DNA of 54,254 nt from Syntrophomonas sp. (GCA_028709585.1 JAQVWS010000002.1:1-54254), one strand, 5' to 3'; numbered from the stretch's first letter, positions 3,403 to 46,158 are shown. Notes: a model not told the origin generated them from the sequence alone. A program made the numbers and translations.

Positions 3403-3555
3403 AATACATTTGGAAGCACTATATTGGACAACATGTTTCATATACCATAAAAATATTCAACCCATACATTGCTATTTGTACCTAGATAAAGTTAAAATCA
3501 TATCAACAATAGAAAAGACTATTGTAAACACTGACGAACTGAACAGGAGGCAAAA

Positions 3556-4013: not shown

Positions 4014-4116
4014 TTCTCTTATCCAGAGAGGTGGAGGGACTGGCCCGATGAAACCCGGCAACCGACTAACAAAGTACGGTGCCAAATCCTGCAGGGTATC
4101 CTGGAAGATGAGAGGG
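4014..4116 (+). promoter_or_regulatory. SAM-I (S-box) riboswitch aptamer
   Basis: TTCTCTTATCCAGAGAGGTGGAGGGACTGGCCCGATGAAACCCGGCAACC...GGTGCCAAATCCTGCAGG...GATGAGAGGG reproduces the S-box consensus blocks. P1 pairs CTCTTATC with GATGAGAG. Confidence 0.92.
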
Positions 4117-25355: not shown

Positions 25356-25371
25356 ATGCGCTATTGGGCAA

Positions 25372-25707
25372 GGGGACGGTTCTTTTGCCTGCGGGGCTAT
25401 CTCTTAGTATCATCAATATAAATGGACGGTAATTATTAATGACCAGACAGGCACGTAAAATGATTAATACCGGGATTTATCACGTTATAATGCGCGGCAA
25501 TGAAAGGAAAAATATCTGTGAAGACATAACTGATAAGCAACAAGTTTTATGTTGTGTGCTTATTGTCTAATGGATAACCATGTACATTTATAATGAAAAT
25601 CTGGCGGAAATAAGAGTGTAATGGTTCGTTATGTTTTGTTCTATAACTGGAATAAACAAAAGCACAGTTGAACGGCAGGAACAAATGCAGGCAGAAGAAC
25701 CGTCCCC
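25372..25707 (+). mobile_element. Copy A of a TIR-bounded, decayed IS200-like/RAYT-type Y1 transposase element (non-autonomous)
   Basis: The ends GGGGACGGTTCTTTTGCCTGC and GCAGGCAGAAGAACCGTCCCC are inverted repeats. The interior encodes broken MTRQARK..IYHVIMRGNERKNI and LMDNHVHL (HUH) remnants with stops and frameshifts. It is similar along its aligned length to 34071-34431 and 45623-46158. Confidence 0.8.
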
Positions 25708-25712
25708 GTAAA

Positions 25713-25744
25713 CCTCCAAAAACTCCCCAAAAACTCCAAAAACT
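25713..25744. repeat. Short tandem repeat (CTCC[CC]AAAAA x3) on the right flank of copy A
   Basis: CCTCCAAAAA CTCCCCAAAAA CTCCAAAAA, read directly. It runs into the stop codon of the convergent CDF gene. Confidence 0.7.
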
Positions 25745-34070: not shown

Positions 34071-34431
34071 GGGGACGGTTCTGATGCCTGCAGGGTCATT
34101 TCTTTAGTATCAGCATTATTAATGACTAGACAGGCACATAAAATATGTAAACCGGAATTTATCACGTTATATTGCGCGGTAATGAAAGGGAAAATAACTT
34201 TGAAGACGAAAATGTTAAGCAACGATTCTTGGAGGGTATTAAATCACCAAAAAAGGGTTGTAGGCTTATTGTCTAATGGATGACCATGTACATTTATTAT
34301 TAAATACTTATAATGAAAATTTGGCGGAAATAATGAAGAGTGTAACGGTTCGTTATGCTTTGTTCTACAACTGGAATAAACAAAAGCACAATTGAACGGC
34401 AGAAACAAATGCAGGCAAAAGAACCGTCCCC
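34071..34431 (+). mobile_element. Copy B of the TIR-bounded decayed Y1 transposase element
   Basis: The ends are GGGGACGGTTCTGATGCCTGCA and GCAGGCAAAAGAACCGTCCCC. The interior encodes broken IYHVILRGNERENNFEDE..KQRFLEG and LMDDHVHLLLNTYNENLAEIMKSVTVRYALFYNW. It has the same 3' internal deletion as copy A. Confidence 0.8.
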
Positions 34432-34455
34432 TTGCTTCCCCCTTGCTTCCCCACA
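34428..34455. repeat. 11-bp tandem duplication that includes the right TIR tip of copy B
   Basis: CCCCTTGCTTC CCCCTTGCTTC CCC, read directly. Confidence 0.7.
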
Positions 34456-42831: not shown

Positions 42832-42849
42832 TAAATAATTGTTAATATG

Positions 42850-43117
42850 GAAATGCGATGATAGGGAAAAAGTATAACAAGAATTTCTTCAGAGAGCTGC
42901 CGGTTGGTGTGAGGCAGTGAAAGAGTTATTGCCAGATCACCCTTGAGCAGACTGCTGAAACCCTTTTTGGAGATTAAGCGTGGACGGGACTCACCGTTAT
43001 ATGAGGATACATTGATTGATGTATTAAAGTGGTTGTAACCCAACAATTAAGGTGGTACCGCGGAAGATATTTGGCCTTTCGTCCTTTATTTTAAAGAACG
43101 ATAGGCTTTTTTATTTA
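42850..43117 (+). promoter_or_regulatory. T-box leader (probable Ile specifier) with terminator
   Basis: Stem-I elements GCGATGATAGGG, AGAGAG and GGTTGGTGTGAGG. The T-box sequence AATTAAGGTGGTACCGCG is at 43045-43062. The terminator GGCCTTTCGTCCTT ... AAGAACGATAGGC is followed by TTTTTT (43072-43117). In the specifier-loop candidate ...CCAGAUCACCC..., AUC is followed by the usual purine. Confidence 0.85.
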
Positions 43118-44842: not shown

Positions 44843-45598
44843 ATGAATGAAAAGAAACTGTACGAGATTCTAATGCAAGTAAAAAACGGGCAATTAGATA
44901 TTAAAGATGCCTATCAGGCTCTGAAAATACTGCCTTATGAAGAGATGGGTTTTGCCAAGCTTGATCATCACCGTGCTATCAGGGATAACTTTCCGGAAGT
45001 GATTTACTGTGAAGGTAAAACGACAGAGCAAATCGTGCTTATTTTCCAGCGTTTGGTTCAGCAAAATAATAATATTATTGGCACACGAGCTAATTTGGAG
45101 ATATATAACGCTCTTAAGAATGTGGTCTCAGATATTCAAATTAACCCTGTTGCGAATTTGCTCTACATAAAACGTTTTGTGCCTCCAACATTAGGGCGGA
45201 TAGCGGTGGTAACTGGGGGAACGGCTGATATGCCTGTTGCTGAGGAAGCAGCTCAATGCCTTGAAGTAATGGGCGGTGAGGTTGATCGGATTTATGATGT
45301 TGGAGTTGCAGGCATCCACCGTTTACTGGATAAAGTCGAGCAGATAAATCGGGCTCAGGTAATTATTGTGGCAGCCGGAATGGAGGGGGCTCTGGCCAGT
45401 GTAGTAGGAGGTTTATTTAAACAGCCGGTAATTGCAGTGCCTACCAGCGTAGGCTACGGAGCCAGTTTTAAAGGATTGGCTGCCTTACTTTCGATGCTGA
45501 ACAGCTGCGCTGCGGGGGTAGGGGTAGTTAATATTGACAATGGGTATGGAGCAGCTGCTCTGGCAATAGCTATTCTGAATACTCAAGCTTCCCGCTAG
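44843..45598 (+). CDS. larB: LarB-type nickel-pincer cofactor biosynthesis protein (AIR-carboxylase-like)
   Basis: FAKLDHHRAIRDNFPEVIYCEGKT...VVTGGTADMPVAEEA...AGMEGALASVVGG...PTSVGYGAS are typical of COG1691/LarB. Confidence 0.85.
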   Translation: MNEKKLYEILMQVKNGQLDIKDAYQALKILPYEEMGFAKLDHHRAIRDNFPEVIYCEGKTTEQIVLIFQRLVQQNNNIIGTRANLEIYNALKNVVSDIQINPVANLLYIKRFVPPTLGRIAVVTGGTADMPVAEEAAQCLEVMGGEVDRIYDVGVAGIHRLLDKVEQINRAQVIIVAAGMEGALASVVGGLFKQPVIAVPTSVGYGASFKGLAALLSMLNSCAAGVGVVNIDNGYGAAALAIAILNTQASR

Positions 45599-45626
45599 AG
45601 ACAAGCGAGACAAGGGAGACAAGGGG
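45598..45626. repeat. 9-bp tandem triplication (GAGACAAG[C/G] x3) that merges into the left TIR of copy C
   Basis: GAGACAAGC GAGACAAGG GAGACAAGG GGACGG. It begins in the larB stop codon. Confidence 0.7.
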
Positions 45627-46158
45627 ACGGTTCTTTTGCCTGCAGGGTCATTTCTTAGTATATCAATATATAAGGACGATGATTATTAATGACCAGACAG
45701 GCACGTAAAATAAGTAAACAGAAATTTATCACGTTATAATGCGCGGCAATGAAAGGAAAAATATCTTTGCAGACAGAAATGAAAAGCAACGATTTCTGGG
45801 AGGTTATTAAATCCCAAAAAAGGAATCAGGTTTCATGTTGTACGCTTATTGTCTTATGGATAACCAGGTGCATTTTTATTAAATACTTATAATAATAATT
45901 TGGCGGAAATAACGAAAAATATAACGGTTCGTTATGCTTCGTTCTATAACTGGAAATACAATCGAGTGGGACATGTTTTTCAGGCTTGTTTCAAAAGTGA
46001 ACCCTTTGAGGATAAAAAATATTTGTTAGCTGTTATAAGAGATATCCATAACAATCCCTTAAAACAAACCTATCTCAGCGAACCATCGCGGCCCTACTGG
46101 GAATAAACAAAAGCACAGTTGAACGGCAGAAACAAATGCAGGCAAAAGAACCGTCCCC
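45623..46158 (+). mobile_element. Copy C (longest) of the TIR-bounded decayed IS200-like/RAYT-type Y1 transposase element
   Basis: The 22-bp ends GGGGACGGTTCTTTTGCCTGCA and TGCAGGCAAAAGAACCGTCCCC are perfect inverted repeats. The interior has an ATG at 45689 (MTRQARKISK..), a frameshifted IYHVIMRGNERKNIF, a mutated HUH (LMDNQVHF), and ORF 45900-46106 (ITVRYASFYNWKYNRVGHVFQACFKSEPFEDKKYLLAVIRDIHNNP). Confidence 0.85.

Follow-up and report, generated by a model that had tools for sequence, protein, structure and literature searches.

Probable relics of a TIRtron-like transposase unit, internally deleted and copied between intergenic sites, in a Syntrophomonas genome

A 54,254-nt stretch of DNA from Syntrophomonas sp. 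(GCA_028709585.1 JAQVWS010000002.1:1-54254; hereafter the window) contains three decayed copies, named A, B and C, of a unit in which a Y1 transposase gene lies between two inverted repeats. Allowing up to three mismatches, the 22-mer GGGGACGGTTCTTTTGCCTGCA has exactly six matches in the window, which form three pairs of opposite orientation (+/- at 25372/25686, 34071/34410 and 45623/46137), and none in 100 shuffles; the 12-nt core GGGGACGGTTCT has no occurrence in the window outside the ends of the three copies. The units measure 336, 361 and 536 bp for A, B and C respectively, all lie on the + strand, align over their whole length and are the sole dispersed repeat family found in the window. 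They had been noticed in a first-pass annotation made from the DNA alone, which described three homologous + strand units with perfect inverted ends of ~22 bp. The units and all six ends were recovered with the mismatch-tolerant search it had proposed, and the ends are indeed perfect in C (0+0 mismatches to the 22-mer, the only such pair), a description slightly overstated for A (1+1) and B (2+0). The insertion sites were given as following secF, ytfJ and larB, in agreement with the proteins encoded alongside A, B and C, which match SecD_SecF_C (SecF), Spore_YtfJ and AIRC (LarB-like) respectively. The flanks of the copies are mutually unrelated and carry no target-site duplications, which fits HUH chemistry and not DDE chemistry, and an Rfam scan matched no RNA family within the copies.

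Three-frame translation recovers MTRQARK..GIYHVIMRGNERKNIF in A, B and C, and stops and frameshifts interrupt the gene in each of them, as annotated. Also upheld were an HUH motif intact only in A and B and an Asp at the position of the catalytic Tyr in C: the motif reads HVH in A and B and QVH in C, and C has VIRDIHNNP where the family has VIRYIHNNP with a Tyr invariant in 39 relatives. In A and B this Tyr has been deleted. The frameshift-corrected relic translation, searched as the annotation had suggested, matches the Pfam Y1_Tnp profile at 51.2 bits (cut-off 23), and intact relatives score 52-65 bits. To judge by these motifs and scores, the family qualifies as a Y1 HUH transposase whose copies in the window are dead. 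Copy C retains, in order, the left repeat, a leader, the frameshifted 5' 60% of the gene, an internal deletion, a tail coding for a C-terminal helix-turn-helix (HTH) and the right repeat. Relative to an intact unit, ~340 bp (roughly codons 125-236) are gone from C, and a larger nested segment (roughly codons 90-247) from A and B, whose common junction reads ..TTCTAYAACT joined to GGAATAAAC...

Used as a protein query, the corrected translation retrieved 611 relatives. The best 120 of the 611 are almost all 245-275 amino acids long, with a few shorter fragments, and the closest among them, at 84-74% identity, belong to Syntrophomonas and to Syntrophomonadaceae metagenome-assembled genomes, P0001 being the nearest intact protein. 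The exact 22-mer occurs at 20 loci in Syntrophomonadaceae genomes, none of which overlaps the window and three of which (L008, L021 and L022) hold an intact gene of 260 codons between a + and a - copy. L022 is the nearest DNA relative of the window copies and is 88% identical to copy C. In the intact units the stop codon lies just ahead of the right repeat, or is absent, in which case the reading frame runs through the repeat. At the other end of these units the left repeat overlaps a promoter-like TTGCCT-17-TATCAT, found ahead of the intact gene in L022. The inward promoter-like motif reported for the left end of the relics is borne out by A and L022; in copy C the second hexamer is TATATC, for which the consensus scan makes no call.

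The NCBIfam model REP_Tyr_transpos (NF047646) matches three relatives (P0003, P0043 and P0072) at 83-91 bits and P0001 at 76.7 bits, against a cut-off of 80, whereas the IS200 model NF033573 gives 17-21 bits on intact relatives (cut-off 55). A profile of the 39 relatives has a sole match in the PDB, Escherichia coli TnpA_REP (4ER8; E=9e-5); a single sequence finds no PDB match, so that the family profile is needed. An AlphaFold model (predicted local distance difference test score 90.3) likewise has 4ER8 as its best fold match, with a template modelling score (TM-score) of 0.81 normalised to the length of 4ER8, compared to 0.55-0.70, normalised to the target, for IS608 and ISDra2 TnpA. Residues H60, H62, Y119 and S139-S140 are invariant in the 39 relatives. 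The last 35 residues (~224-258) match HTH_23/HTH_28 at E=1e-3 to 7e-2, below the cut-offs, and the model places helices over residues 217-258. Because REP_Tyr_transpos scores 77-91 bits and IS200 17-21 bits, and because 4ER8 is both the sole sequence match and the best fold match, the protein is RAYT-like (repetitive extragenic palindromic (REP)-associated tyrosine transposase), not IS200-like. The first-pass annotation had called the gene IS200-like/RAYT-type, of which the RAYT branch of the Y1/HUH enzymes stands and the IS200 likeness does not.

Across 268 unique instances the conserved unit of the repeat is AGGCA-N-GGGGACGGTTCTTT-TGCCT, with conservation of 96-100% over the core and of 64-83% over the outer AGGCA. 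The annotated inverted ends are thus real, and the 22-mer chosen to represent them is shifted relative to the conserved unit, its trailing GCA being subfamily-specific. Over 276 unique instances the outer arm can pair with the inner one in 74% of cells when the two are in register, versus 20-36% when shifted, and compensated arm classes include TGTCA/TGACA, AGACA/TGTCT, ACACA/TGTGT and GGGCA/TGCCC. Homologues only 54-57% identical (P0043 in L032 and P0072 of Desulforamulus aeronauticus in L038) are flanked by inverted repeats with the same core and other complementary arms, GTGTCAAG...CTTGACAC. A Methylomusa anaerophila homologue (P0119, 262 amino acids; L036/L037) has no flanking inverted pair of at least 12 nt; the only nearby match to the 12-nt core stands alone, with at most one mismatch, ~55 nt upstream of the coding sequence. 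Not every member of the family is therefore associated with the repeat. We consider it highly improbable that the inverted repeats are the ends of another transposon (for example of DDE type) or a host regulatory or terminator element, with the Y1 gene as passenger or neighbour. The ends do resemble classical terminal inverted repeats and the copies do lie at the 3' ends of genes, a common place for terminator-like palindromes, but target-site duplications are absent, the unit contains no other open reading frame, the repeat overlaps both the promoter-like site and the stop codon of the gene, and the association persists in the 54-57%-identical homologues with an unchanged core and co-varying arms.

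The repeat is also dispersed without the gene. Sister genomes have head-to-head doublets of the 22-mer with spacers of -4 to 18 nt (L004, L007, L013, L017, L019 and L020) as well as clusters (L006, L009 and L011), and each draft genome with any exact 22-mer locus has 1-3 of them. The contigs L093 and L006 were considered as a filled and empty pair and set aside, as their ~230-bp difference exceeds the doublet and is uninformative on exact ends. A metagenome scan with the 18-mer GGGGACGGTTCTTTTGCC returned at least 120 loci; among the matches listed, ~110 are without a Y1 gene and a few hold other deleted relics (L073/L148, L087 and L144). Gene-free copies, whether single, paired head to head or clustered, make up most instances in genomes and metagenomes. 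The same 18-mer is present in contigs labelled as human gut, fermentation and bioreactor metagenomes (L050, L054, L057, L074, L089, L101 and others) and in further contigs of unstated origin, and the core repeat may have spread well past the Syntrophomonadaceae. Since the repeat multiplies gene-free in sister genomes, as doublets and clusters, the family behaves, on this sequence evidence, as an ordinary low-copy REP-like system of which the window happens to contain gene-bearing relics only. The earlier proposal that the whole gene-plus-repeat unit multiplied holds to the extent that the unit was copied to several intergenic sites and decayed there; in sister genomes the repeat has multiplied on its own as well. 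Homologues are rare on plasmids (15/72,556 records) and phages (1/50,697). One of them, P0043, has an identical chromosomal context in 10/10 contigs from different samples (L026-L035, all of one sister species), a locus that looks fixed and vertically inherited and whose flanking repeats (~1400-1455 and 2340-2400) vary among strains.

The copies share 13 derived substitutions relative to the state common to L022 and L021, and are therefore placed in one clade. Differences between them are spread evenly over the codon positions (9/10/6, 6/11/11 and 12/12/14 for the three pairs; two intact genes give 48/21/110), indicative of neutral divergence, without selection on the protein. Copies A and B share one deletion junction and three substitutions, which together with the codon-neutral divergence suggests that an already defective unit was probably copied, implying mobilisation in trans. 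Viewed as a test for behaviour like that of miniature inverted-repeat transposable elements, the shared junction and the codon-neutral divergence stand beside a junction within microhomology and a sample of three copies only.

The site of copy C is empty in two relatives, L159 and L160, a comparison that the first-pass annotation had called for. Both keep the order larB-orf161-HutP-CM_1 (LarB 77% and 76% identical respectively) with spacers of 67 and 55 bp versus 631 bp in the window, and homology resumes right after ...CCGTCCCC (TTAATACATGGATAAAGG...). Because homology resumes immediately after the element, copy C is interpreted as an insertion with a right end that lacks an outer arm. A transposase may be dispensable for such a gain if gene conversion or a double crossover between the 22-26-bp arms pasted the interior of a defective unit into pre-existing doublets. 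Sister genomes do commonly carry this very repeat as head-to-head doublets, and no target duplications would be expected by this route either. However, RecA-mediated exchange would have very little homology (22-26 bp) to work with, copy C on its right adjoins ancestral flank directly without an outer arm, unlike symmetric doublets, and the empty sites show no doublet, and we regard homologous recombination as very unlikely.

Taken together, we favour, with a probability of about 0.72, the interpretation that A, B and C are dead, internally deleted copies of a ~870-bp TIRtron/REPtron unit of the Syntrophomonadaceae, and that a defective unit was copied before neutral decay. The intact unit would comprise a single gene for a 260-amino-acid RAYT-like Y1 (HUH) transposase acting on single-stranded DNA, with a small C-terminal HTH, bracketed by two inverted AGGCA-N-GGGGACGGTTCTTT-TGCCT repeats, the left one overlain by a promoter-like site and the right one coinciding with the stop or read through by the frame. 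By analogy with its family, the enzyme would recognise the repeat on single-stranded DNA, nick and rejoin at the repeat ends via a 5'-phosphotyrosine link and thereby move the DNA between two inverted repeats without target duplications; it might also act in trans on gene-free doublets and defective units. In this lineage the unit would have lost function, defective units would have been copied to at least two more intergenic sites just downstream of genes (for C as shown by the empty sites), and all copies would then have decayed neutrally. Because the window contains no intact gene, the relics have probably become fossils that no longer move, barring a master copy in another part of the genome; a search for one by exact-protein look-up returned only short Logan contigs that are broken at the repeat.

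Several observations weigh against this interpretation. No intact gene lies within the 54-kb window, and neither enzyme activity nor an excision product nor a near-identical copy of recent origin was observed; with ~11-12% divergence between the copies, the copying events are old. A clean empty-site comparison is available for site C only. At site B, a relative represented by two contigs with the same YtfJ (L161/L162) is syntenic (ScpA-ScpB-DJC28-DUF2953-YtfJ-SpmA-SpmB-FTHFS) and lacks the element, and its ytfJ-spmA spacer holds ~195 bp of unrelated DNA instead of copy B, leaving no clean junction. Three of the six window ends have no usable outer arm (the arm is imperfect at C-left and missing at A-right and C-right); one is present at A-left, B-left and, with 5 of 6 positions, B-right. 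Single-strand folding of the repeat with 5-bp arms yields -0.2 to -4.5 kcal/mol, no better than shuffles (the left repeat unit of copy A forms a weak hairpin of -3.3 kcal/mol); the GTGTCAAG subfamily with 9-bp arms reaches -9.3 kcal/mol (z = -6). Among A, B and C, conservation of the terminal repeats does not significantly exceed that of the interior (94% vs 88%, p=0.07). Finally, the junction common to A and B falls within a short direct repeat, the 4-7-nt microhomology CTGG(G)AAT, and two independent deletions are unlikely but possible; shared derived substitutions are ambiguous on topology, not clearly grouping A with B (AB 3, AC 3). These last two points speak for the alternative that the relics were never mobilised as defective units, three functional units having inserted independently and decayed in place, with A and B undergoing the same deletion twice; the relics with other deletions in other metagenome contigs (L073/L148, L087 and L144) fit such a history too. 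We nevertheless think it unlikely, as an identical junction arising twice is improbable and the lack of a third-position excess argues against long separate functional evolution.

Table 1. Coordinates of the relic units, their parts and associated features in the window, and the intact units used for comparison.
Feature	Position	Strand	Details
Copy A, relic unit	25372..25707	+	336 bp; ATG 25439; N-H-V-H 25576-25587
Copy A, deletion junction	25642-25657	+	same junction as in B; A has further small deletions besides
Copy A, single repeat unit	25366..25390	+	GGGCAA-GGGGACGGTTCTT-TTGCCT; best-preserved in window; outer/inner arms complementary
Copy A, inward promoter-like motif	25385..25413	+	TTGCCT-17-TATCAT; overlaps left repeat; consensus match only
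Copy A, right-end reiteration	25708-25744		looser
Copy B, relic unit	34071..34431	+	361 bp; ATG 34122; D-H-V-H 34282-34293
Copy B, internal deletion junction	34366-34381	+	deletion larger than that of C
Copy B, right-end reiteration of outer arm	34428..34452	+	CCCC-TTGCTT-CCCCC-TTGCTT-CCCC; 0.93 at period 11
Copy C, relic unit	45623..46158	+	536 bp; ATG 45689
Copy C, tandem units abutting left end	45598..45622	+	three 9-nt units GAGACAAG(C/G) = GAGACAAGS x3
Copy C, outer arm of left end	45617-45622		AGACAA, imperfect
Copy C, left repeat	45623..45644	+	GGGGACGGTTCTTTTGCCTGCA, 0 mismatches
Copy C, HUH motif position	45862..45873	+	N-Q-V-H; first His lost
Copy C, catalytic Tyr position	46038..46058	+	R-D-I-H-N-N-P; Tyr of RYIHNNP replaced by Asp
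Copy C, internal deletion junction	46052..46070	+	..CAATCCCT / TAAAACAAACC..; from alignment to L022, L021
Copy C, right repeat	46137..46158	-	0 mismatches; no outer arm
Intact unit L008			871 bp; encodes P0004 (260 amino acids)
Intact unit L021			encodes P0003 (260 amino acids)
Intact unit L022			encodes P0002 (260 amino acids)

Outside many repeat ends, an 8-12-nt unit made up of the outer arm and the first G's of the core is reiterated two to three times. Besides the window copies (Table 1), such reiterations occur in L018, L021 (2905-2924 and 3807-3830), L033 (~1400-1424), L075 and L144, and identity of at least 0.8 to the preceding unit is found at 18/293 repeat ends versus 6/6214 control GGGG sites, a ~60-fold enrichment. 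At the one fixed locus of L026-L035, strains differ in the number of units (two versus three), and the variants include 9 or 11 additional nt and the tandem duplication of a whole repeat (51 nt). The reiterations could stem from slippage on G-runs or from repeated nicking and rejoining by the enzyme, and we decide for neither. A quite unlikely alternative reading of the ends is that the arms form not a simple hairpin borne by the element but a guide-target pair like that of IS608, in which the internal TGCCT would pick AGGCA-like DNA beside the cleavage site, the element would end exactly at GGGG/CCCC, as at the right end of copy C with its immediate return to ancestral flank, and the strain-variable reiterations of arm + GGG would be footprints of repeated nicking and rejoining by the enzyme. 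If true, it would provide the first mechanistic handle on TnpA_Y1 subclass 2.1 (TIRYT) enzymes, and would imply that these enzymes are active, now or recently, on chromosomes.

RAYT-like genes between terminal inverted repeats that share GGGGWSAS have been named TIRtrons, and their enzymes TIRYTs, the repeats also occurring as dimers and clusters (Di Nocera et al., 2013; PMC3733652). TIRYTs correspond to TnpA_Y1 subclass 2.1, with long proteins and a C-terminal HTH-like domain (Bac_DnaA_C, HTH_23 or HTH_28), and the surroundings of their genes are reported to lack REP-like sequences (Quentin et al., 2018; PMC6006769). In common with TIRtrons, the elements described here have a Y1 gene of RAYT type that exceeds classical RAYTs in length, and terminal inverted repeats that open with GGGG and are also scattered singly, as dimers or in clusters, in moderate numbers; the HTH-like C-terminal extension is putative here, its profile matches being sub-threshold. 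Compared with the TIRtron motif GGGG[AT][CG]A[CG] (PMC3733652; PMC6006769), GGGGACGG agrees at 7/8 positions, with G where A is expected. They differ in having complementary, co-varying, REP-like arms around a conserved 12-nt core, and several decayed and deleted whole-unit copies with an empty site in relatives. The supplementary texts name no Syntrophomonas or related genera. The elements are taken to work like a TIRtron and probably to belong to TnpA_Y1 subclass 2.1, an assignment by features that does not make them proven members. CGTC-tagged REP families, suggested by the CGTC within the core, were rejected as an identity because those have 8-9-bp stems, 4-5-nt loops, a terminal tag and reportedly no associated transposase (PMC3733652).

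With REPtrons and the REP-RAYT and REPIN systems of Proteobacteria (E. coli TnpA_REP, 4ER8; Pseudomonas REPINs) the elements have in common a gene between inverted short repeats (L008, L021 and L022), the same repeat scattered gene-free, often as head-to-head doublets able to form long hairpins, and a gene at one fixed chromosomal locus in a sister species (10/10 contigs). In contrast to those systems, AGGCA-N-GGGGACGGTTCTTT-TGCCT has no GTAG tag, its own stem is short (5-6 bp) around a large conserved loop, its copy number seems low, the protein is extended by ~120 C-terminal amino acids that bear the putative HTH, and copying took in the unit that carries the gene. The Y1 HUH fold and motifs, small single-gene units, lack of target duplications and presumed single-strand chemistry are shared with IS200/IS605 (IS608 and ISDra2 TnpA), but the ends of the latter are similarly oriented subterminal hairpins, not inverted repeats, and IS200 is typically multi-copy and plasmid-borne, whereas homologues here are rare on plasmids and phages. 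The elements are not IS200/IS605 insertion sequences.

RAYT Group 1 is the widest RAYT group, occurs in Clostridia, is mostly single-copy and rarely found on plasmids; a near-identical duplicate exists for 6.3% of its members, and the 16-mers that flank it reach moderate repeat numbers (~12 per replicon) (Bertels, Gallie and Rainey, 2017; PMC5581495). Clostridial hosts, few duplicates, rarity on plasmids and moderately repeated flanks all fit the elements here, and the protein may belong to this group, for which neither decayed, deleted copies nor insertion sites are described (PMC5581495). A literature search for RAYTs in Syntrophomonas or Clostridia found nothing specific. The first-pass annotation's verdict of a lifestyle unusual for a Firmicute was overstated, because the architecture had been named earlier and RAYT Group 1 was reported in Clostridia with 6.3% duplicates; the elements are a new example of a described architecture, not a new type. 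RAYT-type genes are usually described as single-copy and domesticated, with the flanking repeats multiplying and the gene staying in place, and neither demonstrated mobility nor a defined recognition structure is reported in the papers cited here for the branch flanked by terminal inverted repeats (TIRYT, subclass 2.1). To this picture we add a Syntrophomonadaceae family with a core-plus-arms repeat, a copied and probably already dead gene-bearing unit, one clean empty site and polymorphic reiterated ends. A fossil unit, an empty site, a 12-nt core with arms that co-vary across ~55%-identical proteins, and strain-variable ends make up a compact natural data set for the TIRYT branch and raw material for testing what its enzymes cut, leaving the general REP/RAYT picture unchanged.

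Some minor features of the insertion sites and the window were also noted. The last codons of larB differ wholly between the window (45575-45598) and L159 (3727-3759) and L160 (3730-3753), and the larB stop codon of the window (TAG, 45596-45598) lies directly ahead of the reiterated units at the left end of copy C; larB seems to have had its 3' end reshaped by the insertion. The ytfJ-spmA spacer of L161/L162 holds a different palindrome (~3515-3545), CTTACGGGGAATGTCCCCGTAA. Site B was considered as an orthologue of the intact-gene site near ytfJ in L021, for which no claim is made: the gene order differs, an acetyltransferase intervenes and the orientation is opposite. Every 6-kb bin shows a positive GC skew (+0.03 to +0.16), and the + strand carries most genes along with all three relics; as the skew is positive throughout, the window belongs to a single replichore in which + is the leading strand, and three + strand copies are too few to argue for a strand bias. 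A T-box leader scoring above the Rfam gathering threshold (42849-43089, +) precedes PALP and RidA genes, which L159 lacks at that position, having a larE-like gene instead, and a SAM riboswitch, also above its gathering score, is located at 4016-4114 (+).

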